DNA of 60,884 bases, counting the filler, from Catajapyx aquilonaris (taxonomy: Eukaryota), in assembly GCA_000934665.2 (NCBI GenBank). It is 2 parts of 2 records of this genome, joined end to end, with 100 filler letters (N's around TTAATTAATTAA, not from the genome) between each part and the next. Parts side by side here need not be neighbours in the genome. Positions count along the whole stretch, not along the records: positions 1 to 30,450 come from JYFJ02004647.1; 1 more part is not named here. One strand, given 5' to 3'. This document shows, in pieces, positions 3,548-32,299 of this stretch; positions within the stretch are counted from its first letter, which is position 1, and the number at the start of each line of letters is the position of its first letter. The notes below the pieces were generated by a model. It made no database searches. It was not told where the DNA came from and saw only the letters and a program-made list of their open reading frames with translations. The position numbers and the translations under genes were made by a program.

Positions 3548-3551
3548 TATA

Positions 3552-9667: not shown

Positions 9668-10047
9668 TTATGCTTTTAGGAACACATTGACAGAATAATT
9701 GCCACCTCCAAAAAGCTCTCTACACATTGGCTGGGTTAGTGTGACAGTATTATTTACTGTGGTTTCGAGTAACCTCTTAAGGCTGTAAGCGATATTCTTC
9801 GTTGTACGTGTGTGATTCAATATTTTTCCAAGCCATACAATTAGGCCACCAGACTGGCTTATTTGCTTCCTGGTTTCCTCCCAGTGATTTTTTAATATGA
9901 TTTTACTCGCTGAGCAGATGCTGCATTTGAAGTCATCAGCATCCATGCACCTTTCGTGAAACACCCTGTGACAGGTGTTGCAGTCGACCACGTGGTTTCC
10001 TCCCAGTGCTATCATGTCTGGAATAAATGACAGCAGCTCCTTCTGCG
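9668..10047 (-). pseudogene. PHD-finger-containing ORF fragment, copy 1
   Basis: GGNHVVDCNTCHRVFHERCMDADDFKCSICS fits the C-terminal three-quarters of a Cys4-His-Cys3 PHD finger. Confidence 0.7.
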
Positions 10048-11100
10048 TCATCCTGTGTCATCCAGTAGTAAAAGGATGTCTTTTTGCAGATCCTTGTTCC
10101 TACTTTTTCTCCGGAATTCTATTGAACTTAGCTTTGGATCCGAACTAAGAAGTAGCCTGCAGAAAAGTTCTTCGTTGGTTTTCATATGCGAATGTTTTAA
10201 GAGTGTGGTGTCCACAAAACGCCGCATGTCGTTATTTTTTTGCTGCTTGAGTCTCTTCTGATAGTTCTCTAATTGGAATGACTGCGTCCTTAACTCATTT
10301 GGAATGGAGTGATGTTTGTGGATACATCCTGCGTAAATTCTTGGCACAGGTTATCTTCAACGTATTATCCTGGTAAAACTCCAGCACCTTTTTATCCCAC
10401 ACTTTTGTAACAACTATCATAGCAACCTTAGAGTTGTATGTGCTGATTATATTACCCTTGTCACTAACTCAAGAAAACTCAAGAGTGTTGTGCCTGAGTA
10501 CTGATATTAATGACTTAAAGTCGAATAAAATTCTGTAAAATCAAATGTGCCTGAGACAGCTGAAGACAAGCCAAAGTTGATAGGACCTGACCGGGGAGGC
10601 AAATCTTCTTTGTGAAATGCACTGCGCCACCCGTGCGACCATATCGAAAATCGTCGGCTGCACATAACACTGGCCTGTAGGGTTAAAGGGCCAGAAGGAA
10701 TGTTATACGATAAATAACAATCGCAATGCAACAGTAGTTTGCTGTATGTACATTTGCAATCCCCTGTAAGTTGAATGTCAGCAGTAACTTGCGACAAGCC
10801 ACCCTAGATATCCAATCATTGGGGTCGCGACGACCGCATGGACTTGGCCAATATCCACCAATTCGTCCTGCAGCCATTGGCAGCTGCTGGCTCTTCTGCT
10901 GGCCTGTTATCCAATGCGGAATGTTTGGAGGCTCTTGTGGCAAACTGCCCGTCCTTACAACGGATTTGACTTGAATAGGTCCTCCAGTTTTGCTGTGCTG
11001 CGGCTAGCATTGTCTTGTTCTGCTGCCATCACAAAATCTTCAACCCAACGAATGCAGCCAATACGTTAAAAATAACCCCTAAAAGTAACTACTTGAAGCA
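10048..11100 (-). pseudogene. Transib transposase relic (copy Y)
   Basis: Motifs in the expected order: FCDGS (11022-11036), VTADIQLT, NFGLSS (~10570), IPIRELSEETQ (~10250-10280), TNEELFCRLLLSSDPKLSS. These match Transib CDGS / LTMxDGK / FGLS / PIGQLSEEAQE / RLLxSSDP. Many frameshifts. Confidence 0.8.
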
Positions 11101-11399
11101 ATCAATCAATTGAATTTCAGTATTTCCTAGTTCAATTGATACTTTCAGGTACTCTGGTTTGGTGCTAACATAATTCTCCAGTTAGTCAGGTGCAGGTAGT
11201 CTGACTTATTATTCTGCCTGTGAGCCTGGAACCATGCGTCAAGCAGCCATGCTGAATAATATTAAGTTCCTTATACATGGGGGTCATTTTCGAGATTGTG
11301 CTCGCTAGATTTTCTTTTGCATTATGGCTTGGGACGGAGCATCATTGAAGTTTCCGATCAAGAACTCTCTTCTCCTTAGTCGCTGGGCAGCATATTATC

Positions 11400-11800
11400 T
11401 GGTTGAGTTACTCGACTCCCTTGATGAATCGCCGTGCCTTCTCATCACCAGTGTGGGTGAAGTTTCCGAAAGTTGTGACGTGAACAGTCGGGTCACCTTT
11501 ACGGACATTTTGCTGCTTGATAATAAGAGCGATGGGCAATATTAGAGATGATCCCTCATCAGCTGTCCACGCTTGCATTGTAATCGTAACATTTTTCTTC
11601 TGCATGTATCCAGCAAGGCTTGCAGCTCCTTTGGTGAAAGGAAGGAAGGAAATTGACATGCCAAAGGTTCATTGGTTCAGGTGTGTGTATCACATGCGTC
11701 GGGTCGGTCACTGATATATAAATGCTGGAATAACTGAAAAGTTCGGGTATATTTGGTGGACGCATGCAATAATAATTATTTAAAAAATCCAAGCCATTTC
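11400..11800 (-). pseudogene. Possible PWWP-like chromatin-reader fragment
   Basis: QAW..LILPIALII...VHVTTFGNFTH loosely matches the PWWP pattern W-x-PA-x-V-x-FFG. The match is weak. Confidence 0.2.
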
Positions 11801-11949
11801 ATGTGCATCTAGTGGACTGATACACAGGTGCTCCCCAGACGTGTTATTCCCGGTTGGTTTCCACTGGCACAGACCATTCTGTCTTCTCCTAATGTGTATA
11901 TGACCTGCATCTCATAATGCCATCATGCGTCGTTCTTTCCTCCTGTAGC

Positions 11950-13500
11950 CCTTTCCTCTCTCTTTCCCAATCAGCTTACATAAGAAATTAATCAATACTG
12001 ATGCGATTAGCAAATCAGTTGCATGGGTTTAGCGAGGCAGGTTTGAGTGACTATGGATGACAGGTTCCTGGAACAATCGGTGACTTCTCTCATCGTGATT
12101 ATTTCGGTATTACCACCGTTACAGAATCGTCTCTGACCATTTTGGTCCATCCACAGCTTGCTGTTGTGAACACTTGCGTATCAATCTGAGTGACACGGGC
12201 AAGAATAAGTGAAAAGGAAGGATGAGCTGGCATGTGATTGTCATCATCTTCCTCTACTTCGTCACTTGATGAGTACATCTCTTCGTCGTCTTTTTGCCTC
12301 TTTCTTCATTGTCCATTCCCAGACCCGACTACTGTTCAGCTTTTCGATTAGGATATTCCAATTATGGAATCCAGTACCTACGTACCGAGAAGCGATATTG
12401 ATGGCCAGCCCCTAAAAGTGTAACAGCGATTCCAAAGGTGATGGCAGTCACCGGCACCTTAGCTTCCATTCTGGACATGACTTCTGCGCTGCTGGCCACT
12501 AGTACACTCAAGTAACTTAACATTGGAGACATCCATGTCATTTGTCGCATCATTGGTCTTCTCCTAGCTGGCGCGGCGGGCATCAGCAGTCGCATGTTTA
12601 TGATGATGTCACTATTCGGTGATTAGATGTTGATGGAGCCGGGGGCTGTAGATGGCTATGCCGGGTAAGCCCCCTTATATACATATCTAATACTAAAGTC
12701 GCATCTCCTGTTCAAGTTATAACAGCAGATTATAATTTCTTGAAGACCCAGGCGATATTTTCTGTTGTGGCGGTCGTGAAACACTCTGTGACAGGTGTTG
12801 CAGTCGACTACGTCGTTTCGCCCCAGTGCTGCGCATTATCATGTCTGGAATAAAGGACATCAGCTCCTGCGTCATTCTGTAAAGGGGCTTGTCAAATTGA
12901 CGCAGCAACATCGGCGAACTGGGTTTTTTTATTCCGGCCCATGACAGCTGCAGAGATATGCGAAGGACAATGTAAGCTAAAAAGACACGAGTATTAATAT
13001 TGTGAAATTTTGGTGCACACATAATGTCTTCCAACAATCACGATTATGTGTGCTGCTGTTCGCAGGTAAATTTTTTCTGCGCTGGTATCTGTCAGAAACT
13101 GCACCTCCGTCGCAGGATGGATTCCAATAGCAGACCGGAGACAGGATGATCGCCCCACAAGTCGGAAAAACATTGGGTGTGGAACTCTCGTTAATGATGG
13201 CAGGCACCGGAAGATTCATTTCAACTTTTTGAGTTGTTGGGAATGAGTACACTGGTAACTCAACATTGGAGCCACCCATACTATTTGGGTTACTATCCAA
13301 GCAGGCAGCAGAGGACTGTCTGAACTGCTGAAAAGTTGGGGGGCATGGACGTTATTGTCACTGTCGAGGTGTGGTAAATCAGATAGGCCAGTGATCTAGG
13401 TATGTTCGTGTCGTCGGGTATTTTACAGACAATGTGATGATTGGGTCTGTAATCATCTGTAACTGCCAGTACAGCAGTGGCGTATCGATTCTTCTATTGT
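11950..13500 (-). pseudogene. Transib transposase relic (copy X), interrupted by a PHD fragment
   Basis: Motifs in the expected order: SCDGGAVSDRYQ (CDG at ~13105-13115), NMRLLM..TNDATN, AITFGIA, AVDGPK, GGNT..RLFQEP. Confidence 0.65.
12720..12957 (-). repeat. PHD-ORF fragment, copy 2 (partial)
   Basis: Near-identical DNA to 14330-14512 and homologous to 9955-10050 (LLRQFDKPLYRMTQELMSFIPDMI). Confidence 0.8.
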
Positions 13501-14077
13501 TCCTGTGTAATGACCCCTAAATATTCACTTTCCGGAAATATGCTTTCCAACTCGTTTAATACGGTAGCTACGTTTTATTGTTGCAGCGTCGGCCTCAGGG
13601 CAAGAGGGATTCCCCGGCCCTTGATATTTCATCCACAATTGCCGATATGCCATTAGGTCTGGCACCCCAGACCCTGCAGTAGTGGGATGAGAGTAACATT
13701 CTTCGCAGGAAGGGAGGACACCAATGGGACAAGGGAGAAGACAGCAGAGACCAAGGCCCTTCTTCGTCTTGTCCTTCATCCCGGGAACTGTCGTCTTGGA
13801 CACGAAGACGAGTTCCTCTTCTTGTCTATTGGGGACACCGTCTTGCCTATTGCATATAATGAGCTAGTAATATTCATTCACGGAGATGCAATGTGCTGCT
13901 GGTGTGCTCGGTGTTGCATCATACCCATTATGAAGCACTTGATCGAATAGACCTAAGTGTATAACCTCCAATGATGACAATGATCCTCCCGAGAGACACA
14001 TAATGGGTATATGCACGGGGATGGCCTTCTATTCCCACATTGACATGGCTCGTATATGCACTTTGTAACCTTCATGG

Positions 14078-14142
14078 TTAGGATATTCCAATTATGGAAT
14101 CCAGTACCTACGTACCGAGAAGCGATATTGATGGCCAGCCCC
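14078..14142. repeat. Exact 65-bp duplicate of 12348-12412
   Basis: TTAGGATATTCCAATTATGGAATCCAGTACCTACGTACCGAGAAGCGATATTGATGGCCAGCCCC occurs at both positions. Confidence 0.95.
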
Positions 14143-14512
14143 AGCTGTAGGCGATATTCTCTGTTGTACGCGTGTGTGATTCAATATTTTTCCACGCCAT
14201 ACAATTAGGACACCTGACTGCCTTATTTGCATCCTGGGTTCCTCCCAGTGATTTTTAAATATGATTTTACTAGCTGAGCAGATGCTGCATTTGAAGTCAT
14301 CAGCATCCACAGGCGTTTCGGTGCACCGGTTCGTGAAACACTGTGACAGGTGTTGCAGTCCACTATGTCGTTTCCTCCCAGTGCTGCGCAATATCATGTC
14401 TGGAATAAAGGACATCAGCTCCTGCGTCATTCTGTAAAGGGGCTTGTCAAATTGACGCAGCAACATCGGCGAACTGGGTTTTATTATTCCGACCCATGAC
14501 AGCTGCAGAGAT
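14143..14512 (-). pseudogene. PHD-finger-containing ORF fragment, copy 3
   Basis: YCAALGGNDIVDCNTCH(fs)..RCTETPVDADDFKCSICSASKIIFKNHWEE. Homologous to 9780-10050. Confidence 0.75.
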
Positions 14513-14547
14513 CTCTGGCTACGTGGTCTTTCATCATCATCATGTGG

Positions 14548-14800
14548 TCAATGGCTGTTATGTAGGACAGCACAGGCTACAATAATTATGAGGCTCGTCT
14601 CCAGCTTTGTCCTCAACTTCATGCTCAGGCACGCGAACCCCATTTTCCACATTCCAAATGCGCATTCCACTCCCATTCTGGTGCTGGATAAAGTATCATT
14701 GTAGCGGTGCTCAGCTCTGGTGGTGGGGTTTCTCACTGTGGTGAGTAGGTATGGCAGACTAGTATACCCAGCATCTCCAATGAGGTGGCCTTGTAGTGCG
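14548..14800 (-). pseudogene. PIF/Harbinger DDE transposase C-terminal fragment (HARBI1-like)
   Basis: GHLIGDAGY..LPYLLT.VRNP...EHRYN...STRMGVECAFGMWK..FACL...IIVACAVLHN. Confidence 0.93.
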
Positions 14801-15480
14801 CCTGAATGAAGCTGCGATTCTTGTGCCCTCAATTCAAACATCAGCCTATGGGGACTGCTTAGTGTCCTTTCCATTGTTGCACTGTTTACAAATCGAACGA
14901 CACTTATTTGCTCAACACGCTGTAGTAGTAGCAGACTGTAACAGACTGCAACAGACTGCTTTTCCACAGTACCGTTATATGTGTGGTTGACCAGTAACAG
15001 GAGTCACGATAAGAACACGTCTGTCAACTCCGAAGTCCCAAAACAGAGTGGCTGGGGCCTGGGGGGCCTCAGTCGGGCCCGTGACAGCTTAAAATACCAT
15101 ATGGGTAGCTTTCTCAAGTCAAGGACGTTCAAAATACTTTGGGGTTGTTTGTGAAGAAAATTGGCAAAAATACATCTCTCCCAACCCCACTACCTTCAAA
15201 TTGAGCCGCATTCCTACCGAGCGTAATCCCCAAAAGGATCCGCATGGTCAGAAACCGGTGCGGTGTTGCCTAGTTCGGACGCCGATACACGACCAATGCG
15301 GTCTGTGCCATTCCTGCAGTGAGCAGGATGATGGCTTGTGTTCCGCAAGTAATTATACACTGCAAAAAGGAGGTTAAAAGCAAAAACCGATAACTCCAGT
15401 TTTGGTTGTTGTTTATCAGTGGTGCCAATAACTCCATGGACTTTTTATGAACAAAGTAAAATAATTTCGGTTTTTTTAAA
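14800..15480 (-). pseudogene. SWIM / YqaJ (lambda-exonuclease-like) accessory ORF relic of ISL2EU-type elements
   Basis: LLFAV..KPSSCSLQEWHRP (post-SWIM SCTxxxQxWHxP motif) is followed by MERT..FELRAQ(fs)RIAASF (YqaJ WxxxRxxRITAS motif). Confidence 0.5.
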
Positions 15481-16899
15481 CGAGGTCCTTACTGCTGCCG
15501 TCAGATATGAGAAGACCGTAACTCAATGTCCACTTCCCCTTGCGCCCTAGGAAAATGCGAGCGGAGCGAGGATTTTACTAGTGCACATGGTTAAATCCAT
15601 GAGCTCTTCAGCCCGAGACGTGTTTCCGTCACTCTTCTTGTGCTCTTGTTGCATCCATCTGTAACAAAATAGTGAAGTTTGTAATTCTAATAGTGCACAT
15701 TTAAAAAGGAGCAAATGCAGATGTAACTGCCTGAATACATTATATGTCTCTTCAAAGACATCTCATCTTCTCCTTCAGGCATTTTCCTGCTGGTGGTGGT
15801 ATCCACATGGAGAGTGGCTTGGGAGGCCGTTTTTTTTTTTTCATTGACGTTATTTCTGAACCCGGAAAATGCCGTTTTCTCTCATTTTTAAATTTGTCAA
15901 CAAGCATCTGCTTCCACGGCTCCTATATATGTGAAACAGAAACATTAAAAAGATTGCTAACAGGGAGATTATTGTTATGAAATTCAGTACTTAATAAATG
16001 AAAAAAAACACGTAGAGAATTACTGCATTTTATAAATTACCAACCCATTCATTCCCGCCAGGATTTTTCATTCCCCAATGCCCATGTTTTTTGATCAATT
16101 ATTTTGCCACTTCCGTGTACTGGGCTGACGTGGGGTAGCTGTAATGACGTATACACAATGACGGTATTTCATTAGGATTAAAGGTCATTTTCTGCAGGCT
16201 AGTCTATATTTAAAAAGGGGAAGAAACACTTCTTTTAATTGAAGTGGGTGTGCACTGTAAATATGGTAGTCGTCAACCAAAATCTTGAACTTTTAACGCA
16301 CTATGGGCAAGATACAGTGTCGATGCTTAGGTGTAAAAGTAAATGTTTGTAATGTCCGGTTGTCTTTCTTCTCACCTTACCTTGGCATACAGCCAAAGGA
16401 CACACTTGGTCAGTTCCCTCCACAGTCTTTTTGTTGCGGACTGGGTCAGGTAGTGTATTTAATTTGTAAGTTAACAAACCTCAGAGGAGCAGCAAAGTCC
16501 TGTTACATATGCATAAATTCACAGTAGAATTGATTGCTATTAACAAACCTAAAAAAAATCCAGTTTGCCTATTCGTTGACCAAAGGGAAGATCCATTAGC
16601 AGTAGTTAACAAAAAATTGCTTTTGAAATTTGACCAAAAGCTTAGAGTCACGCTGTATTAAGGGACGTTCTTTGCTACCATAAAACGGGGTTGGAACTAG
16701 TTTAGGTCTACAAAGTCCTAACTTTATGGTCATTTAATGCAAAATTAATGATATATTGGGAGTTCATGATTGTGTCATACCTGCTGCATTTTCTCCTTAA
16801 CATCTGCCAACCGAGACAGTTGCCAGTTGTGTCCAATCAGTGTCAACAATCAATCCAAAAATTGCCCCTTGGAACTTGTCAACAGCTTCTCCTGAAATA

Positions 16900-17350
16900 A
16901 GACACAGTAAAATNAAATGTTACCCAGGATAAGCAGCCAAATGTAAGGTTTTTTGGTCCTGGACGGTCCTTGCATCTCATAACCATGTAACTGTCGGAGT
17001 CAGTGCTGCATACGGTTATGGCCGCAATCAATCAAAGTATCCAACCCGGAAAGGATGGTTGTCATCATTGTAAATTGTGTCTAAAGTGTGGCTCCATGGG
17101 TTTATCGCAGCATCCCTAACAATAGCACACTATGGAGAACAGATTTTCCAGTGGATCTTGGATCAGCCGGGATATGGGCAGGTGACTCAACACTTTCCCG
17201 ATCGAAGTCATTCCCCCCAAAAATACGACCGCTCTGATGTTCAAAAAGTCCTATAACTTCACTGGGCAACGTCTTTATCTTTTTCCCTGGCTGTTGTCAG
17301 TTGGTAAAAGGAAGATTCGCATTTCTCGGGATGATTTATGAGTAATTTCC
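16900..17350 (-). pseudogene. P-element (THAP9-like) transposase C-terminal relic
   Basis: SRLIQDPLENLFSIV...GCCDKP (~17100-17175) matches the P-element motif RLxQDPLENxFSxIRxxGGxxDNP. Confidence 0.8.
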
Positions 17351-17799
17351 TCTGTACCGTGTTGTCTTTGTTCCCGATCGTGAATCCAATTCTTCTTGGT
17401 CTCGGTCGATCTACTGTGAGACCAAAACGTTTCTGAATATGCCGCTTATCCTCTTGAGTTAAGTGGCAAGCTCGTACTAAGGAAGGCCCAACTCAGAGAA
17501 GTTCGTGCGAATTTCTCCACATCACGAATGTCTTCCTCTTGTCATATTCATCCTCGTTTGATGGGTTGTCTTATCATTCCATGTCCACTTCTCTTGCAGT
17601 TTCTGATGATGATTGGTTGGAGGGATCTGCATCGGAATCCGATTCATTCCTCAAACAGCTGCAAATTCCGTGGACTTTGTCCGGATTTAGGTCGCTCTCG
17701 CCTAAATAACGCCCGTACATTGGCATGTTTCTCCGTGTTCGCCCCATTTTTCACTGGTTCTTCGTCAAATAGAAATCTAAATTAAGTTGTCACTGTCGG

Positions 17800-18260
17800 T
17801 TGTCTTCAATCTTGATTGGCATTGCAACACGCCAGATAATGTTGTTGGGCTTCTCTAGGAAAGACACTGATTTGGTGACATTCTTGTATGGAGGCCATCA
17901 GGAAGTAGACGATCCACCTTTTACTAGTGCAGTCCAAGTGCTTGGCACAGCATCAACTTTACTGCTCTCGATGTGAAAAGTTTCAATGACACCTCAACTG
18001 GCAGGCAATACTAACATAAAATACTAAAGAAGAGTACCTGCTTAAAGGACTTCAGTGACCGCATATGTCGTCACAAGGGTTTTTTCCCGTGGCTAGTAGC
18101 GAAAAAATTTCACTCCGCCCTGAATTGAAAGTGTCCAATGGAAGCCGAGATTTCTCAGATTTCTTTCTGTTCTTGTATTGTGAGGTGGCCCCATCACTGA
18201 AAATCATTAATGGTGCAAAATAATTCATTGTGCTGGGCCAGGGCATCTGGGCGTCAGTCG
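17800..18260 (-). pseudogene. Sola2-type transposase relic
   Basis: IFSDGATSQYKNR and ATGKNPCDDICG match SDGAxxQYKN ... SHGKGPCDGIGG. Confidence 0.75.
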
Positions 18261-18700
18261 ATCCCACAATTGGGGAGGTGTGGTGGTGACTTGAAGCAGT
18301 CGACCACGACTTGTTCGTTTCTTGAGGTTCAGGATTGGAAACGGTGAGTTTGGCTCCAGGTTTTCCTTGTACCGGATGGCGTGAGGATTGGCCTTGTAGC
18401 TATTATGGTCCTCTTGTCTTGGTCTGTGTCGCGCAAAAGGAAGTGATATTGCATTAGTACTGCCAGTCTCACTCTGAAGTGCGGTAACACCGTAAACAGC
18501 ATTGGCTGAGAGGGCAAGCAGAAATAAATTTTTGCTGTGCACGATACTGTATTTCTTGTGAAGAGAGACATCCGCAAGCCGTCCATATCGATATGGTTGG
18601 CGCGTCCAAAATAGATGAGTTGGGAAGAAGACCTTGCAAGTGCGTCTGTCAAGGTGTCCTGTGGACGGAAGATGACAGTTTGCCGGTTTTGATGCACATA
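18260..18700 (-). pseudogene. CACTA/EnSpm-like transposase relic
   Basis: HIDMDGLRMS, FLLRD.. and SHHHTSPIV resemble the NxDGL / CDxPAR / HHxxSPL motifs of animal CMC-EnSpm transposases. Confidence 0.4.
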
Positions 18701-19549
18701 CTTAAAAATTTATCCGCATATATACATATGTAACGAGGGAACCATGTAATGACTATTATTCGGTTGGCCTTGAATTGTGTTTGCATAGTTTTAAATACTC
18801 AAAATGGCATTTTTATCAGTCTGTTTTATTATTTACACAGTAAGATTGATGTGAACTTATTTTTAATGGCATTCAAAATTGTATCATGGATCTGAGCAAC
18901 GTAACTGGTATTATGTGGTCTTTTATGACCCCACGCTTACGAGAATTGAGAGTGTGAAGTTACTGATTAATTAAAACCCAAATGCCTTTGTGTATATTCT
19001 TTAAACATATCTTTGCCTATGTCTGTTAATGTCTTTGAAATTATTATTTTTTTAAATGAGAGTCCTCAAATAAACATCTACAATCGCGGTGGGTGCATCT
19101 GGGATCAAAAAAGACCCCATGATACCAGATACGCAATGATGTTGATTCCAAGGCATCTGATGATCTGATGTTGCTGTAGTCGGTGCTCACATGCTGGAGC
19201 AGGCTTTCACCAGCTTCTTCCGTTAAAATTAAAGACTCAATTTTATGTCGCGTACATTGGTCATCTCCAGCAGGGTATTGTGATACCCGGTGTAAACAGT
19301 CATCTGTCATGTGCAAAATAAAAACATGCGAAATTGTGTATCACATACTGAATTGTACACTGTAGGGTGGAGCGAGGAACATGAAAGTTGTCCAATTAAA
19401 TAGCACGGGGTGTCAAAAGTTGTGCATGGACTAGTATAACACTGGTGATTTTTTTATAATTTTCGTACTTCATTGTCATTCTTCGCAAGAGCCTTCAAGT
19501 TTCGCAATTTTTGCGAGAACAGCACATATTACGTTGTGCAGCACGATTT

Positions 19550-20100
19550 TTGTCCATAGGAATTCGTCGCAATTTCCACGGCTCAGAGGTCAAAAATGGC
19601 AAGGTCCACTTGGAAAACCTGGTCGTAAAATGAGCAAACACCGATGATGAACTTTCAGTGGTACAATCTTGAACCTTTTTATGTCCATATTTTTCCGCAG
19701 TTAAGCGACATACGGAAATGTGCAAATAATATCCAATGATATTAAAATGAATAATTGTTGCACGTATTTGTGTTCCACCCTCCAAAAGTGGACTTTGCCG
19801 TTTTCGATCTCAGAGCCCTCAATTATTAAACAATTGCGTGGTAGGTAAATTGTTATGTTTTCAAAAGTTTTGTCATCAAATCACTTTTATCTGCCACACA
19901 CTCTATTATACAATCTGTATCAAGACTTTGAAGTATTTCTTTCTCGACTACCATAAGCATGAATGCTTCCAGGTGGTCTTCAGTGAGAGTACTTCGAAGT
20001 CTGTTTTTTTACAAACTTTAATACAGAAAAACTTCTTTCGTAGGCTACTTGCGTGAAAGAAAGTGTTAGCATGGATTTGTACGCAACGCCTATCTTACAA
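19550..20100 (-). pseudogene. Possible Ulp1-like cysteine protease relic (transposon cargo)
   Basis: YHWIL and (C)xVFAxF pieces are in the right order but heavily frameshifted. Confidence 0.3.
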
Positions 20101-20334
20101 TATGCCCCAGTCAGTAGATTGTATCACTTCAGAAGTCTGTAGCAGCAAAGTGAACAATTTTGACACGGTGTACAATTCTTTCTCTTCAACTTTGGCTTTT
20201 TTGGACGTGACTTTTCTCTTGGTTTTGCTATGTCTGCCTCCTCCTCCTAGGATGGATCTTACTTCCGCTTCCGCTTACTTCACCTCGTCAACATTCACCC
20301 CGCCGCCAATATGACAGCCACGCGCCTTAGCTGG

Positions 20335-20545
20335 TTGCTGTTTGTGATGTACTTGAAAAGATACTTCACAGCCCTTCGGCGAGAGGCAATTTCCGTGTTG
20401 ATGTGCTCTTCATACTTGAGCATCTTGGCTGCGTTGTAGGGAACGACCCGAGCGTCGTTAATTTCGACATCCTTTCCAGCATAGCGAATCTTAGCCTTGT
20501 TTTTTACATTCCTCTTATAGTGGACGAAATATGTAAGGATGGGAT
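20335..20545 (-). pseudogene. Helitron Rep (HUH) domain fragment
   Basis: INDARVVPYNAAKMLKYEEHINTEIASRRRAVKYLFKYIT matches the Helitron motif VVPYNPxLxxxxxxHINVE...KYLFKY. Confidence 0.9.
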
Positions 20546-20589
20546 GTCAGGATATTATTGATTCAAATGTACTCTTACTTCCATATTTT

Positions 20590-21960
20590 TAAAATAATCA
20601 CCACTTCACTGGGTATGCTCCCCACCCAATTGACCCTGAGCCCAAACTGGACCAGCCGATTTACTTTGGCGCGCCGTCCCAATCCACCCGTCTTAGTCGC
20701 TTCCGGAGCCAAAGCGGTATGTCGCCGGGACCTGCAGGCCCCCGACAACGCGGGCTGCAACAGCACAGGCCCAGCTCAACCCCCTGGACATCCTTCCCCG
20801 CCGTACGGCGTTCAGGACCCTACCAGGAAACAAAGAATCCCCGGTAAGGTGGTCCTCTCACCGCGAACAGGAACCCATATCGAGGGGCAAGGCCCTCCAG
20901 AAGGGTGTCCCTCTCCATGGTTCGCTCCTTTTTTGCGGAACCAGTGTGCTGATGGTTATCACATTTACCAATGCCGGAACCACTCAGGGCTGCGCATTCC
21001 AAGACCCTGGCATGCATGGTCTCATAATCCTTGGCGATGTTAGTCCTTCTTGACCTCCATTTCTCCTGGTGCTGTGAGTCATCGCGGTGGCGCCTGCAGA
21101 GCAGCCTGACCACCAGCTCGACGATTCTGCTGCAGCCCGGGTTTTTATCCGGTAAAAAAGCAGTCTCGGTCCGTGTACAGGACGGATGGAGCATGGAGGC
21201 TCCTCTCCGGCCTCCCGGAACCTCCGCACCAGGCCGCTGGCCAGCACCTCTCCACACTCATTCCCCACGGAGGTCATCCAGGAAGCGGTCCCCGCCATCT
21301 CCTCCTGCAGCTTCCGGCAGATCTTCTTGGTGGAGTCGACCTTGATGATCCTACCGAAGGTGGAGGTGATCCCAGCCTTCACCTCCACCAAACGGCTGAA
21401 CACATCTCGGACGTACGCCCCCAGGAACCACTTGGCGGTGGGCAGGGGCACCATGATGGGGACAGGCCGCGCAGAGGGCACGCCTGCCCCGAGGAACTTG
21501 GCCCTGACCCCCGACCAGTACCGCTCCACCTGGCCCAGGTAGGCCACCTGCTTCCGGGCCCACTCCTCCTGGTGCAGCCTGTCCAGCTGCCTGCAGAGGG
21601 CCGTGGGGCTGTTGCCCAGGGTCCGCTGCTGGAGCAGGCTGACCACCGCCCGGTCGCAGGCGTACCGGTATGTCAGGACCGCCGGTAAGCGCACCCCCCG
21701 GCACCTGGGCCATGACCCTGTCGTCCCAGGCCCTCAGTGTCAGGTTGCACTGCCTACAACGGCAGTAGTCCCCGAGTGGCAATCATGGAGAGACATTGGT
21801 CACCTACTCCTTGGGTTCTGTCCAAGGCAACCCTTTCGAGTTTTCGAACCGCTTTCTGTAGAGAGGAGCGAGTCCCAGCGCATGCCAGGATTTCCATTCG
21901 ACTGCATATACGCTGCATTCAGATCCAGCCGGCGGAGGTTACTCTGGCGAATGTGAAACC
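20590..21960 (-). pseudogene. Dada-like (DUF6729-type) transposase relic, copy 1
   Basis: CRQC..LRAWD..PAVLTYRYACDRAVVSLLQQRTLGNSPT...ITSTFGRIIKVDSTKKICRKL..TASWMTSVGNE. Internally deleted and GC-rich. Confidence 0.75.
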
Positions 21961-21999
21961 ATCCTCTGACTCATGGTTGCAAATATTCATGAAATTTTG

Positions 22000-23100
22000 T
22001 TTCTTCTTATACTGCGCGGCACAACCGTCAGTGAAGTTCATGGAGTGTCCCGTGCCTCGGTGCTGTTCTGGGTACTATAAAGAAAAGGGAGGACATTTCA
22101 TGCTACTCACAGCACTTAACCTGGGCTGCCTGGATATTTTTGAGGGGTGTTTACCTTGAGGGACTCAGATACTCCCTTGTCCATGATGATCTTCCCACTC
22201 ACCAGGAGAGCACTTTTTGGCATGAATACTTTACGGGCTCCGTCCCTTGAGTAAGCAGATCCTCTGCGTACTTTCCTAGACCACTTGTCTGTGGCGTGGG
22301 GAATGTCGTCCTTGTTTGAAGTACGCTTCTGATACTTTTTTTGAAATCCACATTGAATTCAGCATGTGTCAGTCGCTTGTCTATCTAAGGAAATCATGAC
22401 CCGTAGAATTCTTGCTGGACTCCTGTGCAGTTTTTTCATTAGTGAATTGTTCTTGGAAATGTTGAATACGCTAGATGCAAAGGCTCCAGTACATATATTT
22501 TGTGATGTCACTTTCATACTTCAAATCTTCGCTCAAGTTTTTGCGTCGCGTCCGTTGCAAATCTGAATGGAAGTCTTATCTGTCAGAGTGTTGCATGTGA
22601 GCTCATGACGAGCAGTCACACTCATTTCTGAGTGTGGGACGGATATGGCGTACTTTGTTGCCTGTGTTAAGCTGTTTGATTTGTTTCTGGACGCACTCTT
22701 TATGAGTTACAGTGACGACACATGCCCCCTTTGCAAAATTGCATGGGACGACATATTCGCATGGATGAGGGACGGTTATTTTGCCAAATTACTATTTTCT
22801 TCTCATTTGGTCAATTTTAGGAATCAATAAACCTAAATGTGAAATTTGTCCTCTCGCTCGCAGCCGCATGCTGGCCGCATCTTTCTTGTACGTTGAGGAT
22901 GTCGCTCAACCTGGTTTGCATATGCCGTGCTTCTCTCCGTCCTACTGTTGTAATGCCACATTGGATAAAACATTCCCGAAATTGGGTTTCGGGAATCTCA
23001 TTCCTTGCCTCTTGCACACAGTGAGCTACTGCTTTAGGTATGTCCTCAACATTTTCATGCCAACCTCATTTACCATGTGTGTATATTGTGCCTGCCTTCA
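22000..23100 (-). pseudogene. Transib transposase relic (copy Z)
   Basis: KIVIWQNNRPSSMRICRPMQF (~22738-22800) matches the Transib motif IWxNxxPSSTRYCRPI. Confidence 0.8.
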
Positions 23101-23789
23101 TGTAAAGTCCAGATCACAATGTTGGGCTTCTCCGAAGAATTCACTGCTTTTGTGACATTCTTGTAGGGTGGCCACAAGCAAGTAGCTGCAGGATCGTCTC
23201 CCAAGTGTAGGGGACTCCCTCAATAATTTCATTTGCACAAATAATACACCGTAAGGGTGCAGGTTCTCTGGTTTATGATGTCCTTTCCCGGGCAAGCCGC
23301 ACATGATATGACTGCACAATGGTAGTAGGCCTACAATATATTGGCCTGTACTCCTGCAACCATCAACCTGCAACTTGCGCGCCATCTATTATTCATATTA
23401 TTATATATACTTGATAAACTTCCTCAGAAGGACACAGTTTTACAAGGCGCGCCACTTAGGACCGAGTCTACTTCCTGCTCAATTATTTCTCAGAACGACA
23501 ACCACGTATAAATATTATTCATATTATTAACTTCGGAAGACTTATCTGCCACCTATTATTGATAATTATAACTTACCATGCACCTGTATAGCATATATAG
23601 TATGTATTATATAGTCATAGAGCTGCCCTGCCATCTGTCAACATGTTTAAATTTTCAAATTTCCCACCTTACACTGTAGTAAACTGCGTCATTGGCTGTG
23701 CAATATTTTACATGTACAGTGGATGTGTTCCAGCTGGTTACTCCATAGTGTTACCGGTAACGAATTTTAGGAGTAAGCTGCTGATACTT

Positions 23790-23980
23790 TTAAGCAGTTT
23801 CTTTGCAACATATGCTTGCTTTCTAACTTCATGTCGGCCCCAATGCTGACCCACAACTGGTAAATGTACTGCCGGTTCTTGTGGTCCTTGTGTTGCGGGT
23901 TCCACAATGCAGGCTGCTGCTGGACAAGTGAAATGAGTTGTTCACATTCCGCGATGTAGATCTCTTTCCGCGAAGCCATG
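23790..23980 (-). pseudogene. MADF (Myb/SANT-like) domain fragment, typical of Harbinger ORF2
   Basis: EQLISLVQQQPALWNPQHKDHKNRQYIYQLWVSIG. Confidence 0.85.
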
Positions 23981-24229
23981 GTGGAAAGGGTGGGCAAAGG
24001 CACTGACACTTCTGGATATGACTGTGTCTGCAAGAGCAAGGAAAACATGAAATTATTAGAACATGAATTTACACGGGATTAAATGCTTTTTTACTGCAAT
24101 TGACTTACTTTTTCGGCTGTGGACGTAAGTAAGTGCTGAGGTTTCTTCCCCAATCTCGGTAAATGAAATAATTAACCACAAAGCATTCGCAAACAAAACG
24201 CATTACTTTGTGACGATCGTATTTCTTTA

Positions 24230-24520
24230 ATGCAGCTTACTCCATAAAGAGAAGTGCGTAAATTCAGCTAGTTGCATGAATAATGAAATGCCATCATTTA
24301 TGCACTAGAAGCATAAATATATGCACTTAACTGAAATCACACACTAAATGCATAATTTCATGCACAGTGCATATTACCCTCATGCAGTAAACTGCATAAA
24401 GAAAACTGCATAAATTCAGTTCGTTGTGTGAATAATGAAATGCATTACAAGAAAACTGCACCACGGTGCATATTTAAACGTTTTATGCAATTACATGCAT
24501 AAAATAATGCATTACATGTT
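24230..24520. repeat. TGCA(T/A)-rich region with a ~48-bp direct repeat (subterminal-repeat-like)
   Basis: CATAAAGAGAAGTGCGTAAATTCAG...AATAATGAAATG (24243-24290) recurs at 24395-24442. There are many TGCAT motifs. Confidence 0.6.
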
Positions 24521-24689
24521 CTCAGTGTTGTTTGGAGTGGATTTGGCGAGACCCGGGACCCTCGCACGCCTTATTCGCAGAAACCCTAATCTGCAAGACA
24601 TCGAAGTTTCCGACACGGCTCTTCGAACAGGTCGGATGGACATTCACCCACACATTCATGGCATATTCCTGCACCCAGAGCCGCATGTC

Positions 24690-25545
24690 TGCGGACAGCT
24701 TCTGCCTCTTGAAGAGTCGGTTTGGCATGGATCGGATTGGGTTTGCACAAAATCGATGCGACATGCCCTCCCAACGATGAAGTGCCTGCTGAAAGATGAC
24801 CTCTTCGTCTCCTCGTGCTGTCTCCCATCCCATGACCATTTCAGCACACAGGTTCTCTATACCGGTACTTCTATAGGATTAAGGTCTGATGACTTGGGCG
24901 GGAAGTCCACTACGAAGACGTCTGTCTTTGTCCTGGAACCATAGCTGAACTACCCGTGCCGTATGGATGGAGCAGTTATCTTGCACGACAACAATTTTCT
25001 ATTCATATGGGAACCTTTCCCTTACACTCGCCAATATTTTCATGCATTGGAACTTATCTAGATTACCATTTATGATTCAATGTGATGAAGACGCCCGGTC
25101 CCCAGAGAGGCACTGTCTTTCTGCCCCTATGTGCCTTCACTGCCACATTTTCTGGCAGATATCGGGTGCCCATTTCCCTCCAGCAATGGCGCACAACCTG
25201 CGAAAAAAAAAATAGCAAAATCCCTCAGAATATGGGACAGTGCAGTTGGTCCAATCCTTGTGAAGGTTCCGTCTTGAAAATAGAACACGTTTTTCTCTGT
25301 GCTTGTCCGTAAGGTTTTCCAGTAAAAGTCCGCCCAGGAACTGTCTTCTTGTTGAGAAGTTACTCTACTGGACTGCGCATGACAATATGAGGAAACCCTC
25401 CTATTGCACAAGCAAAGTCAGCTTGTTTTGCCCAATATGTGGCAAGACTAATACTCTTGGACTCATCAAGATAGGGGTTGCAAAACCCTACTGTAACACA
25501 AGTGAGCGAATTGAGAGATGCTTGGAATTGCATGCGCTACTTATC
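24690..25545 (-). pseudogene. Tc1-family (DDE) transposase relic
   Basis: KHREKRVLF, DWTN, IVVVQDNCSIHTARVVQLWFQ (~24930-24997), DFPPKSSDLNPIE (~24870-24908), CANPIRSMPNRL. Confidence 0.9.
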
Positions 25546-25559
25546 CTAATGTTGCCCCC

Positions 25560-26480
25560 AGTCTCACCTGCAGGCGCCTCCAGTCCTTGAAGAGAACTGC
25601 ATACTTCGACACTCCGTGGGGATTGCAGCAGTCCCGGTCTGTGTAGAGCGCTTGTGGAGGCTCCTGTCCAGCCTCCCGGAACCGCCGCACCTGGCCCCTG
25701 GGCAGCTCCTGCAGGGCGTCACTCGCCTCGGAGGAGGTGGTGAGGACGCTGGCCAGCACCTCTCCACGCTGATTCCCCACGGAGGTCAGCCATGCTGCAG
25801 TTCCCGCCATCTCCCCCTGCAGCTTCCGGCACGTCTTCTTTGTGGAATCCACTTTGATGATCCGGCCGTAGATGGAGGTGATGCCCGCCTTCACTTCCTC
25901 CAGGCGACCAAACACGTCCCTCACGTATGCCGCGAGGAACCACTTCGCAGTTGGTAGGGGACCATGACGGGGGGATGTGACGCAGCTTTCACACCTGCCC
26001 CAAAGTACCTCCTCGCCCCCGACCTGGCCCTCTCCAACTGCCCCAGGTAGGCCAGGTGTTTCCGTGCCCACTCCTCCTGGTGCAGCCTGTCCAGATGCTT
26101 GCCGAGGGCCGTGGGGCTGTTGCCCAAGGTCCGCTGCTGGAGCACGCTGACCACGGCACGGTCACAGGCTTATTTGTGTGTGAGGACTGCTGGGAACCGG
26201 ACCCTGAGGTCCTCGGGCACCTGGGCCATCACCCTGTCGTCCCAGGCCCTCAGCGTCAGGTTGCACTGCCTGCAACCGTAGTAGACCCGACCAGATGGTG
26301 TGTATCAGTGTCGTCGAGGACTACCCGGGCATGGTTGTACAGGCCCTTCTGCTGCAGGTCTCGCCGACACTGAGGGCACTTCAGCGCGAGGCCCCACATC
26401 CTCTTTGGTGCCCACAAGAACAGCCGCCGCCTAAAGTAGGCCGCTGGGATGGGAATGCCGACGACTCGGGGCTCTGGCGG
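25560..26480 (-). pseudogene. Dada-like (DUF6729-type) transposase relic, copy 2
   Basis: YFRRRLFLWAPKRMWGLALKCPQC..GLYNHARVVLD...RFPAVLT...IIKVDSTKK...LYTDRDCC...WRRLQVRL. Truncated just before the expected DxxH motif. Confidence 0.78.
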
Positions 26481-26599
26481 GTGGTACCAGTTGACAACAG
26501 TGATGTTTCATGGTTTTTCTCTGCCCCATGCAGCAATGTGCAAATTGTGCGTTGCACAGGCTACCCACAGGTCCTTTTGACGTGGATATGATGATTAAT

Positions 26600-27530
26600 A
26601 GGATCTCTTTTCTAAGACTGAAGTTGTCGGACATGAAGGATTGAAGCTTTTTTGATGAAGTCATGTCAGGCATCAGTGGAGGAGTCCAGCAGTTGTCTGA
26701 GCTGGTGACTCCTAATGTCCCCGTGAATGTTGTTATTCGAGTCCTGATCCATTGCTCGAAGCCCCGGGCACTGACGTTTTTGACCAAGGTCAGCAGTATG
26801 GGCCCCCAGATCGGGATCTGGAGACGGTAATTATCGAGTAGGTATCTCACATCTGACAGATTCTCGTCACATTTTAATCACAATATGGTGAAAGATATAC
26901 GAGTAGTATTATAATCCATGCTCGTAGTATCCTAAAAAATTATGGCTGTCCATTTATCGGACAAGAAATAATTGTCCTGTTATTTTCAATGATTCCAGCG
27001 AGCGCAGTTTGGGAACCGTGGACATAGCAGAAGAGAGATCCTGGTCCCAAAATAGTTTGCCCCAATTGTCTGGAAATGAAAGCGACCTACACTGCAGAAT
27101 GCCAAAGGAGTTGTCCTCATCGTATGAAATGTGTGATTATGGTTTGTTAGTCTGTTTATTCATTTGTGTAATGGTACAACAAGTCGGTTGTTAGGCAGTG
27201 AGTGGTAATTAGGATTGGGTTCAGTTTTTATGCAGTGCTTCTAGTGTACTTCTTAACCCGTGTTCTGTGAAGGAATTCCACTCGCAAGCAAAGCCAGACA
27301 GTGACTCATGGTTGCAAATGTTCACTAAATTGTGTTTCACCAAATGATGGGTTGACACAACAAGCGGTTTACTTCACACAACCAAATTGGCCTCAACTAA
27401 TTGTGGTTGGTTGTGTCAACCGACATAGTTTTTTCAGTGTACTTATCTTGCCAACTGGAGAGGTCCATGCGAATTTTTCCACTTCATCAATTTGTCTTTC
27501 TCTAATATTCCTTATCGTTTGATGTGTGAC
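26600..27530 (-). pseudogene. MULE (NOF/Foldback-like) transposase relic
   Basis: MSVDTT, EDNSFGILQ, LLCYVH and YLLDNY..IPIWGPIL appear in MULE order (D, D, CxxH, PLW). Confidence 0.45.
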
Positions 27531-27553
27531 CCAATTGGGAGCCGCTCTCAAGT

Positions 27554-27722
27554 TGGCCCCCGGAGTGAATGTGCTAGACGAGTAAAGGTATGTGCCGGAA
27601 TCGGCATGTGGGTCGGTGAATGTGCTCGATTTTTTTTTTGATTGAACTCTCATAGTTCCAGAGATATTCCAGTTTCAATATCCGGGGGCTAACTTGATGC
27701 TAGCCCCCGGAGTGAATGTGTT
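27554..27722. repeat. Short direct and inverted repeats
   Basis: GCCCCCGGAGTGAATGTG occurs at ~27555 and ~27703, GTGAATGTGCT at ~27616, plus the hairpin CCGGGGGCTA..TAGCCCCCGG (27682-27710). Confidence 0.6.
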
Positions 27723-28149
27723 CGGGTTCCAAAATGGGTGGAATAGATTCTGCGTTGGACGTGCTTAATGTGCTCGAGTAATGAAAATAAGTCATAATCA
27801 CACGCATACATAATAATATGCTGCAATAAGGCCTTACAGTTATACACGGCCAATCCCTTCTTTCTTTCGTCTGTACTTCGTCGATGTAAGTTGCGGAAAT
27901 TAGCCTCAATGATTCTTGCCCTCTCTTTCTAAGCTCTTCTTATGTCCATACTTCTGGCGTAGTTGGCTACCATCGATATGAATGGTGGTGTTCCGCCTGA
28001 CTCTTCAAAAATGTCGTCGTCTTTTCTGAGTGCCTCGCTGTCCAAATAAGCAGCGTAAGTCAGCGAGAGGAGGGTGTTCAAACTGCCGGAGTTTTTGATC
28101 CAAAGGGTTTTGTTTTTTAACCGTACTGGCTGCAGCAAACTTCCATTAC

Positions 28150-28900
28150 GAACGATTTTCAGACGTTTTTCACGTGCACAGGATATTGTATGTTCATCAC
28201 ATGAAAGTACTTGTATTCTAGGTACTGCCTTCACGAGGCTCGCCACTGCCACAGCGTCACACTCAAACACTATAAATACCTGATCTGGGTTGCACTTGCT
28301 TCCCATTGCCAAAATAAAAGGCTGCGTGATGCTGCCATCACTCATGGCCCATTCGTTTCCGACAAACACTATACTGCTTTAACTTACATAGCCAGTACCG
28401 CTGGAGCCTTTTTATCAGTTGGGAACGTCGCGTCGTCACATTGTCTTGGGCCAACTATAATTTGTGACATTTGCTGGGAAAGCACCCATGTCGTTCGGTC
28501 AGCACTTTCAAAAAAACATCCCTATTCTGCCCCATTTTTTTTAATTTTCATTGTAAGTGATTTGTCCCTTATCCGCCTTGAGCTTTTTGATTATGTCGGG
28601 GTAGGCTCGTTGTACCAGTGGTACTAGCTCGAACCCTCCTGCTGCCGTTGGATCATGTAGTGGCTCCTCCAAGCTGTCAGAAATTTCTAATATCTTCCCA
28701 CTTGAACTCTCGGACGCTCTAAGACATGTTGCCTGATTGGGCACACAAATTGCTCCTTCGCTTTGGCCGGCATGGGTAATTCGCATAATGTACTCAGCGA
28801 GCTTTTTATTTATTAATTTAAACTGTGTGCCCTTTCGAGGTATGAGGACTTCAAGAGTTCTCTCATCAATCAGGAGAAAACTCTTACCGTCTATCTTTTC
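28150..28900 (-). pseudogene. CACTA/EnSpm accessory ORF relic
   Basis: ITQPFILAMG..PDQVFIVFECDAVAVASLVKAV resembles the conserved C-terminus (QPFI..G...F.....S..KAVD..FK) of animal EnSpm second ORFs. Confidence 0.55.
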
Positions 28901-29550
28901 ACCTGCACAGATTTTATAAATATAAGAAATCGCTGTTGGAGGGGATGGTTCCCTTCTTCCGTATCACTCTCAGATCGTGATCGATCTCGCTTTGATAGCC
29001 TTGATGGGCCATCCATTGCTTCCGCTGGGGTTTCCAGCGTGAGCTCACAATCATTCCCATGCGCTGCTGCACCATTCTGGGCCGCCAATGGGTTACGATT
29101 CTGAGTTTCAAAGTTCGAACTGTCAGTGTCAAGCTGTCAACAATTATCCAACAACCAATCAGTGATAAACGTCCCCCTTAGCCCTACTTCCTACGCCAGG
29201 AGGGGTACGGTCAAAATCCCAACCAGGTCTCAGGTTGTGATGATCATGATCCGATCATCCGATCAAGGATGATGAGGCCTTCAGTCTAGAAGCGCGCCCC
29301 AATTTATAGGGGTTGGCGCGAAGTATGCTGGGAGATGATGCCAAGGTTAAAAAATAAACGGAGTTGATGGGGTAAGCATGCGGATAGGTCTCGAGTATAC
29401 TCGGAATTTACACATTTCTTGCTTCATTGCATTTGAAGCGATTTGAAATATTACTTACATTTATATTGAACTATTCTAGCCACTTGGTTAGGTTCTACAC
29501 CCTGTGCCACACTTAGTTCGTCAAAGTCAAGTAGACTCTGTGTGTGATCC

Positions 29551-29883
29551 TTATAGCGTGTATATTGTAGGTGGTGCAGAGGGCTTGACTGTTGCCAATT
29601 TGTCACTGATATCATCGTATTTTTCAAATGGTCCATCTATCCTCCTACAGTACGCTACGTAATGGCCCACCGTTTCATGGTATCCGCTATGGCTAATCCC
29701 TACGATGCCCCGCAGCTGGTAGTTCTTCTCTTCAATGCGTATCTTGCTTGGGCTGTCCTTCAATGCGAAGTAACGCACCAGTTCCGTGTTGACCCCTTCG
29801 CCATTTGAGGTGGTAGTGCATATAATATCCACCAATAAGTGATGCATAGTGGAAGTATTCACATACCTGGTTCCGGTGCACAT
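29551..29883 (-). pseudogene. USP/C19-like peptidase C-terminal fragment, as found in NOF-FB-type MULE proteins
   Basis: LKDSPSKIRIEEKNYQLRGIV...VGHYVAYCRRIDGPFEKYDD matches the His box YxLxGxx..GHYxAY...YDD. Confidence 0.75.
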
Positions 29884-30450
29884 AGAACTTTTTGATATGG
29901 TAGGATCCGCCCATCACGTTACATCACGGTATTATAAATAATAAATTGAATGAAGCTGTTACAGCAGCTTTCAAGTCGTAATATGCATAATTTTTCTGAC
30001 ACATTGCAATAAACGTTTGTGAAAGTTTAGTTGTGTTTTGAAGCTCGAAAGAGTCAGTGGAAGCCCTGACTTCAAATCCAACGATATAGTTCCAGGTTGC
30101 CCGTTCCAGGTTGAAGAAATCGCAGTGAGCCAGCACTGATCCCACTGTCGTGGAAGCTGGGATATGCCTTTCCCTGGGCTATGAGAGCAACCAGTTTGTC
30201 ACAAGGTTCTGCATCTCTGCGTCCGATGCAAACCTTTGCCATGCTTTGACCTTCCAGATATTTCTTGAGGGGGCCGATTAATTTATTATTACATGCAATT
30301 CACTTTGGATATTTCTGTGTGAATTCCATTTTAACCATTTATTTGTGTATACAGCTGTAGATACAGAATTGAGTTTGCTTGCTGAGCCATGGGAGCTTGA
30401 AAATTTGATCTCATAAAACCAGCACATGATTGGTGGGCATAGCACAACAA

Positions 30451-30550
30451 NNNNNNNNNNNNNNNNNNNNNNNNNNNNNNNNNNNNNNNNNNNNTTAATT
30501 AATTAANNNNNNNNNNNNNNNNNNNNNNNNNNNNNNNNNNNNNNNNNNNN
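30451..30550. other. Artificial 100-nt contig spacer
   Basis: 44 N + TTAATTAATTAA (30495-30506, stops in all six frames) + 44 N. Confidence 0.97.
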
Positions 30551-31127: not shown

Positions 31128-31775
31128 TTACACCCGAAAATAAAAAGACTTTAACTGGCTTACATGCCATCTCCCAGCTGATACGCCATTTTCTGTCAAC
31201 AACCCATAAATGTTCCCCCTGACCTCTCCCACACGGAATGGTCCTACATACACAGGAGCCAACCTTTTCATAAACTTATCCGTGGCCTTGGACAAGACGT
31301 GATTCCGCCTCAAAACCCACTCCCCCCACCTGGAAAGTCACTCCTTCTATTTCGGTCATAATAAAAGGCCGACTTCTGTCTGCTCCTCTTGAGTTGTTCG
31401 ATCATAGCAACCTTGGCAATCTTAACCCTCTCTGTTAATTGCTTTACATACATTTCCAACGAACTCGCCTCGGGGGGGCCGCCGAGATCTCCACACAATT
31501 TTAATTCTCTCCCTAAATTGGCATAGGCGGGGACGATACCAGTCCAATCATGAACAGCAGTTCTTATAGCAAAAGCAAATTCCTCAAGATACTTGTCCCA
31601 CACTCTGTGATCGTCCTCTACATATGATGCAATCATGGTCTTTACCACACGGTTCACTCTTTCAGTGGGGTTTGCCTGGGGATGGTACAAAGCAGTGAAT
31701 TTTATCTTTATATTCCAATTGTCACATGCGGTACGGAAGGACTTACTACAAAATTGCGATCCATTGTCTACAATT
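31128..31775 (-). pseudogene. Ty3/Gypsy integrase (core plus GPY/F module), frameshifted and 5'-truncated
   Basis: IVDNGSQFCS..TALYHPQANPTERVNR..EFAFAIRTAVH, then RLAPVYVGPFRV..WHVSQLK. Confidence 0.95.
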
Positions 31776-32299
31776 GAGGGGGTGAAAATCAAAAACCGAC
31801 AGCTCCGTCATAAACGTAACGGAGAAAAACGAAAAAAAAACCTACAGTTTCGCCGTATGTCAACGTAGACACCTGAATGTAGCGGCTATAGATTCCTTTA
31901 CTAGCAACTCAACCATTGGTAAGTTATTATGAAATCATCCGCCATAACCTAATGAGCTGTGGACCGTCCATTCCACCACTGGCCGGTTTTTGATTTGCAA
32001 CAGGCTGGAGTTGGCGCTTTTTGATGCAAAATTGAGTGAGGGAAACATGAAACACAGGTTTATCCGGCGTGTAAATGTTTAAGTTTATTCCACGCTGCAC
32101 TTTTAATATGCATTTAATAAATAATGGGAACACAGAGTTGTGTGAGAGCAATTTTTCACATTACAAAATACCCAGGCTGTTTGAAATGTGTGGATATTGC
32201 TCATTCCAATAGCCTTTTTGTGATCAGAAGTTGGTTAATTGCATGTATTACTTCTGCAGAAACCAGCAGCCTTTTAATAAGTCGTGCAATAATGCTGTC

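Follow-up and report, generated by a model that had tools for sequence, protein, structure and literature searches.

The window analysed here is a stretch of 60,884 nucleotides of animal-like DNA from Catajapyx aquilonaris (GenBank assembly GCA_000934665.2; positions 1 to 30,450 come from JYFJ02004647.1), and the region of interest is 9668-29900, where minus-strand transposon pieces lie side by side. Judged by its layout, the locus would extend over ~50 kb of transposon remains in one orientation, antisense to a putative plus-strand transcript. This makes it a candidate one-strand PIWI-interacting RNA (piRNA) cluster, whose pieces most likely shrank on site instead of being acquired as copies of RNA. 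The 17 tool-supported pieces have a median length of 205 bp (range 84-934) and cover 4342 of the 20,233 bp (21%), a share that rises to 42% once 15 extents drawn by eye are added, by-eye and repeat limits being estimates. Repeats make up 10% of the region and 48% of it carries no family label. The first-pass annotation had described catalytic-core fragments of many families fused end to end. The dense packing of short pieces from many families is borne out, but "catalytic cores" is only about half true, the MADF, UCH-like, SAM-like, helix-turn-helix (HTH) and three PHD-like pieces being non-catalytic. The pieces, together with repeats and miniature inverted-repeat transposable elements (MITEs) with their terminal inverted repeats (TIRs), are as follows.

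9782-10056, minus strand: PHD-like finger copy A, non-catalytic, by alignment to copies B and C (Pfam C1_1 only at E 0.008; Cys/His pattern by eye)
10057-10520, minus strand: Transib-like transposase C-terminus, frameshifted, by-eye likeness to the Transib rows in supplement file 7 of PMC7204232
11461-11646, minus strand: NOL4-type HTH-like piece (PF23079, E 8e-4, below cut-off)
12348-12957, minus strand: 65-bp block, ~340 bp of other DNA and PHD-like copy B, duplicate of the composite at 14078-14512
14078-14512, minus strand: 65-bp block and PHD-like copy C, by paralog alignment
14557-14793, minus strand: Harbinger transposase, C-terminal half of the DDE domain (PF13359 positions 75-158 of 158, E 6e-14; IS5 family, E 0.002)
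14850-14926, unstranded, limits approximate: short multi-copy repeat (summed depth ~1170 at 14879; joint at 14926)
15409-15582, unstranded: very high-copy MITE-like repeat (bin depth ~4000, many loose ends)
18025-18270, minus strand: Sola2 transposase piece A, second catalytic D region (match 18055-18210, profile positions 504-555 of 751, E 1e-6)
18900-19133, unstranded: MITE with 34-bp TIRs and a 3-bp flanking duplication, CAA (inverted-repeat search; multi-copy in contigs)
19580-19817, unstranded: MITE with 32-bp TIRs and no exact flanking duplication (inverted-repeat search)
20328-20468, minus strand: Helitron Rep/HUH end, ~3% of the protein (Helraiser 7lcc, amino acids 693-738 of 1496, E 5e-6)
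21159-21772, minus strand: DUF6729 (Dada-like) transposase piece 1 (amino acids 132-350 of 657 of relative P0001; Pfam match)
21956-22040, minus strand: Sola2 piece B (match 21964-22038, profile positions 506-530 of 751, E 5e-10)
23821-24108, minus strand: MADF gene piece (PF10545 positions 1-41 of 84, E 8e-9, match 23821-23937; ATG at ~23979)
24720-25350, outer limits by eye, minus strand: Tc1-like transposase, frameshifted (supported part 24918-25076: PF13358 E 0.0045, IS630 E 0.004, below cut-off)
25352-25495, unstranded: multi-copy repeat between the Tc1 and Dada pieces (depth 1000-1400; loose ends at 25366 and 25456)
25559-26492, minus strand: DUF6729 (Dada-like) transposase piece 2 (amino acids 64-373 of 657 of P0001), stopping just short of the DxxH motif
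27291-27376, minus strand: Sola2 piece C, 70% identical to piece B over 86 nt
near 27932-28200: second UCH-like piece (Atlas lead, score 0.85)
29608-29736, minus strand: UCH-like protease piece (PF00443, E 4e-4, below cut-off)

Among the stop-free open reading frames (ORFs) of at least 45 amino acids between 9.7 and 29.9 kb (135 on the minus and 112 on the plus strand, 4 minus-strand ORFs with N being excluded), the Pfam cut-off was passed by five on the minus strand (Harbinger DDE_Tnp_4, DUF6729 three times, MADF) and by none on the plus strand. The DUF6729 pieces, which we take to be Dada, were both placed with the help of two protein relatives; motif look-ups in Dada supplements gave no match. 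The labels YqaJ, CACTA and MULE are tentative motif assignments; no tool confirmed them, and YqaJ found no PHROGs support among 22 ORFs. Homolog searches came back empty for 15007-15921 and 28100-28963, as they did for 17401-18700 among 1.84 billion representatives. The Transib-like piece matched nothing in any search run (solved structures, viral contigs, profile searches); viral contigs gave no match to UCH, Transib or Dada queries, nor solved structures to Transib frames, Tc1 frames or a Sola2 relative. For Sola2, a two-sequence alignment led to 54 metagenome loci, and a profile of 751 positions was built from 38 of their ORFs. Five near-identical intact relatives from one metagenome record set (L013, L014, L016, L018, L020) are 3.5 kb long and bear TIRs and 4-bp target-site duplications (TSDs), and the motif of piece A recurs in the Sola2 rows of supplement file 2 of PMC3627910; pieces A and B are therefore assigned to Sola2. 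The family of these five elements is recently active, and its intact members keep the TIRs and TSDs that the window pieces do not. Piece C gave no profile match at 6 bits or more. The motif shared by the three Sola2 pieces was considered as a sign of core selection and rejected, because the relatives had been fetched by that very motif, it is the most conserved stretch and two of the pieces are paralogous.

All Sola2, Helitron, Tc1 and Gypsy matches lie on the minus strand. Among 27 non-overlapping repeat pairs, 26 are direct repeats, and the one inverted pair is an upstream hairpin. The locus thus displays the strong one-strand bias of transposon remains expected of a unistrand piRNA cluster. 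The Gypsy match (31131-31807, outside the region) is a minus-strand remnant of a Gypsy-type integrase with an SH3-like part, both below the Pfam cut-off, and every other identified transposon piece belongs to a DNA transposon; with this one integrase remnant, the antisense enrichment of Gypsy long terminal repeat (LTR) elements that strictly marks flam-like clusters is not seen. As to composition, T exceeds A on the plus strand in 55 of 60 one-kb bins of the window. Upstream of the one-way array, 2454-4637 holds a 2.2-kb inverted-repeat nest with arms of 363 and 284 nt, 88-93% complementarity and smaller hairpins inside. Candidate plus-strand splice sites (donors at ~5360 and ~5818, acceptors at ~5660 and ~7504, with a stop in the middle exon) make 5340-7520 a possible spliced non-coding leader of a plus-strand precursor; against shuffles, plus-strand splice sites are not in excess in 1-9 kb.

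The mosaic itself is real. Short-read contigs from three DNA runs of one sample, possibly the source of the assembly itself, gave 32 listed matches and 2606 further ones. In at least two of the three runs, single contigs cross the junctions near 10047, 18260, 20560 and 21980 with no mismatch (spans 9916-12377, 16915-18757, 20044-21387 and 21882-23402), so that at least four of the seven junctions named in the first-pass annotation are no chimaeras; for those at 14800, 25555 and 26550, no bridging contig occurs among the 32 matches listed. Contig depth is here a sum over contigs with a background of ~35, not a copy number. It stays at ~35 over 9.6-12.3, 16.3-18.3 and 22.3-22.9 kb, which suggests few close relatives and is not used as proof. 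At 26775-27577, two contig versions each reach a depth of ~50, one identical to the window and the other with 10 other letters and gaps, through heterozygosity or a recent duplicate.

The direct abutment that had been proposed for all seven junctions holds for at most three: PHD|Transib, Sola2|CACTA (~18265) and Dada|MULE (~26500-26550), where the CACTA and MULE labels lack confirmation by any tool. Paralog alignment moves the first of these breaks from 10047/10048 to 10056/10057. The other four do not look direct. A short multi-copy repeat separates Harbinger from YqaJ (depth ~1170 at 14879) and another separates Tc1 from Dada (1000-1400 at 25423-25435), while some 600 bp (20547-21158) that could not be placed in Dada lie between Helitron and Dada. 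The "Transib" at 21980 is in fact Sola2 piece B, with ~180 bp of unlabelled DNA (21773-21955) between it and Dada piece 1; extension of this Dada piece into 20540-21165 or 21740-22000 did no better than shuffles. Of the microhomology or filler expected at breaks under repair-templated capture, the three mapped ones offer a mixed picture, one having a 4-bp microhomology, one being blunt and one carrying 1-2 extra bases.

That the coding pieces lack element ends is upheld, since of 64 inverted repeats none of the 25 longest is a TIR pair framing one. Helitrons lack TIRs and TSDs alike. Dada elements have no TIRs either (PMC3706591). One partner at four of the seven junctions is therefore TIR-less by nature, and missing TIRs are little informative there. 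The contrasting claim that MITEs keep both TIRs and TSDs stands for the element at 18900-19133, with its exact flanking duplication, but only one of the three TIR pairs checked has one. Solo TIR-like ends occur in similar counts on both strands and were dropped as evidence.

Whether the pieces descend from DNA or from complementary DNA (cDNA) can be read from their introns. The MADF ATG is closely preceded by a canonical 81-bp intron (24108-24028) whose donor is perfect and whose acceptor is strong. Splice sites were also scored by a consensus rule and compared with 200 block-wise dinucleotide shuffles. In 9001-30450, the minus strand holds 47 acceptors versus 30.1 ± 5.5 expected, and the plus strand 62 acceptors versus 53.9 and 38 donors versus 34.5. 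Minus-strand donors of 30551-60884 number 76 versus 46.5 ± 6.8 and donor-acceptor pairs 15 versus 5.2 (reached by 0 of 200 shuffles); plus-strand acceptors there number 83 versus 65.6. The MADF intron and the minus-strand excess of splice sites indicate that at least some pieces are unspliced DNA. The loss of donor introns expected from cDNA capture, one of the routes that had been suggested, is not what is found, the 24108-24028 intron being kept and minus-strand acceptors being in excess; on these grounds such capture appears disfavoured.

The pieces look young by their stop codons and are nonetheless tiny. Three stops in 882 codons of 13 homology-supported segments correspond to ~2.6% neutral decay (0.5-7.7%), an estimate that is biased low because most segments had been detected by their uninterrupted frames in the first place. 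In the Dada segments, where tblastn reads across stops, one stop occurs in 482 codons. Recognised pieces are mostly below 10% of an element, those of Sola2 amounting to 2-7% of the 3.5-kb element and that of Helitron to 3% of its protein. Few stops combined with such small size imply frequent deletions of hundreds to thousands of bases, or else that some pieces arrived short by gap filling. Deletion is documented by one case of 800 bp and several smaller ones. In each of the three runs, a contig (depth 32-45) joins 28541 to 29355, so that ~800 bp (28541-29350), with TTAA at 28541 and 29347, are missing from a second, near-identical version, which is an allele or a close paralog. This segment holds a SAM-like ORF (Atlas lead, score 0.83 only). 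Dada piece 1 shows a blunt 51-bp deletion relative to piece 2, and PHD-like copy B lacks ~170 bp present in copy C. A composite of 65 identical bp and a PHD-like piece is present twice (12348-12957, 14078-14512), and downstream duplicates of 62-80% identity contain many gaps of at least 10 bp. The pruning that had been proposed is thus supported in its deletions (the TTAA-flanked variant, the internal paralog deletions) and accompanying local duplications, but not in a selective keeping of catalytic cores; conserved cores stand out mainly because only they are recognisable without a family library. The part of the window at 30551-60884 is more decayed, with a guanine-plus-cytosine content of 0.40-0.42 versus 0.43-0.48; long minus-strand ORFs are scarcer there, and local duplications of 62-80% identity form chains. 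There is possibly an age gradient away from the left end, across the N-padded stretch at 30451-30550 (a placeholder of 44 N, a 12-base palindrome and 44 N).

Several histories could account for such a mosaic. That its junctions are assembly chimaeras can scarcely be credited: the N-padded stretch and the three junctions lacking a bridge among the listed matches would fit, but for the other four this is refuted by single contigs of 1.3-3.3 kb that match across them in the three runs, albeit from one sample that may have supplied the assembly. It is highly improbable that retro-element enzymes inserted reverse-transcribed fragments of transposon mRNA, the origin suggested for viral pieces in mosquito clusters. 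Such a route would explain coding pieces without ends and the intronless 930-bp Dada piece, Dada elements usually containing introns (PMC3706591). However, the alignments of both protein relatives run through this part of Dada with no large gap and thus demonstrate no intron loss; an intron is kept elsewhere, the coding strand is enriched in splice sites and the sole LTR-element match lies outside the region. We also regard as unlikely a neutral transposon graveyard, or a very long intron of a plus-strand gene, that has no small-RNA role and owes its bias to the purging of sense-strand splice and polyadenylation signals. The candidate plus-strand splice sites upstream and a plus-strand zinc-finger remnant speak for it, whereas the strand lock is complete across all identified transposon families, and a scan of 112 + 118 ORFs, together with 28 of the 94 lying upstream, revealed no intact coding exon on the plus strand.

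A more serious competitor, still rather improbable in our judgement, is that the pieces arrive short: break repair would copy 0.1-1 kb from a transposon copy elsewhere by template switching or gap filling, and antisense fillers would be kept, so that the locus grows like a spacer library from DNA templates. The youth and shortness of the pieces and introns compatible with a DNA template agree with this, and animals are known to fill gaps by way of short microhomologies, with a preference for templates close by (PMC8277862). The 800-bp variant, with its 4-bp microhomology and no TIRs, could be an insertion. Yet only three of the seven junctions look direct, ordinary MITE insertion is evident and the three mapped breaks share no single signature (one microhomology, one blunt, one with 1-2 extra bases). 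Besides, by a motif that we assume to be of SAM type, an ORF crosses the left break of the variant, which favours deletion. Somewhat more doubtful is the fuller version of this idea, in which DNA-templated break repair would supply a one-strand small-RNA locus directly with 0.1-1 kb stretches of active DNA transposons, the antisense ones being kept as a compact spacer-like library against cut-and-paste elements.

With modest confidence, we favour a strand-selected locus built by DNA insertion, followed by large deletions and local duplication. DNA transposons and MITEs would insert as genomic DNA, with the introns still seen today and probably as whole elements. Copies in the opposite orientation would then be purged or not kept, selection being the presumed cause of the strand lock observed. 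Deletions, ranging from tens to hundreds of bases and beyond, would take away the bulk of each element with its ends and TSDs and bring unrelated remnants together. Some of them would occur at short microhomologies, and many were probably triggered by the excision of neighbouring DNA transposons. Finally, local duplication would copy composite pieces such as the one present twice. Excision of DNA transposons in rice nearly always deletes flanks or adds filler (PMC4423477), and the evolution of piRNA clusters proceeds through insertions that are large and deletions that are smaller (10.1101/2021.08.20.457083). On present evidence, known processes suffice if large deletions are frequent. Some observations weigh against this explanation. 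Slow erosion by small deletions would not yield few stops together with tiny pieces, so the explanation has to presuppose that large deletions occur at a high rate. The deletion direction of the 800-bp variant depends on the presumed SAM-type ORF, which crosses the left TTAA after a frameshift, and the paired TTAA could be a target duplication. The minus strand of 9001-30450 shows no excess of donors (29 versus 36.8), and its 9 donor-acceptor pairs, versus 4.4 expected, were reached by 10 of 200 shuffles. The 5-mer splice tests are weak for 9-30.4 kb and supportive for 30551-60884. A decayed C2H2 zinc-finger array at 35331-35624 (extending to ~35700), the sole plus-strand coding piece identified, runs against the one-way order.

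Among known systems, flamenco and the flam-like unistrand clusters of Drosophila (PMC10643416, PMC10495008) likewise consist of dense one-strand transposon remains, gene-free, with segmental duplications and fragmented copies. They differ in that Gypsy LTR elements prevail, many copies are full-length and small-RNA proof exists, while the Catajapyx locus is made mostly of DNA-transposon pieces with a median of 205 bp and is known from sequence alone. In the turnover described for piRNA clusters (10.1101/2021.08.20.457083), large insertions are also followed by deletions in older elements, but deletions there are few and short, whereas here truncation far outruns point decay. Single-copy Pack-TIRs formed by gap filling (PMC8277862) and excision footprints (PMC4423477) share TSD-less junctions, short microhomology, filler and local copying. 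Pack-TIR fillers, however, are enclosed within a TIR element and show no strand lock, and no framing TIRs were seen in the Catajapyx region. The endogenous viral elements of unidirectional Aedes piRNA clusters (10.1101/127498) are short co-oriented foreign coding pieces too, and have been likened to CRISPR; they are attributed to template switching during reverse transcription beside LTR elements, whereas in Catajapyx introns survive and the neighbours are DNA transposons. A literature search covering sources outside most subscription journals returned no paper on repair-templated capture into piRNA clusters, nor on unistrand clusters of sub-kb DNA-transposase pieces.

To conclude, much is still to be learned about the ways in which piRNA source loci acquire and lose content, a subject that has mostly been studied in LTR-rich loci of flies. 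If its layout does reflect piRNA production, the Catajapyx locus, with its young and tiny DNA-transposon pieces and its 800-bp variant, offers a tractable place to measure shrinkage in place against short arrival.

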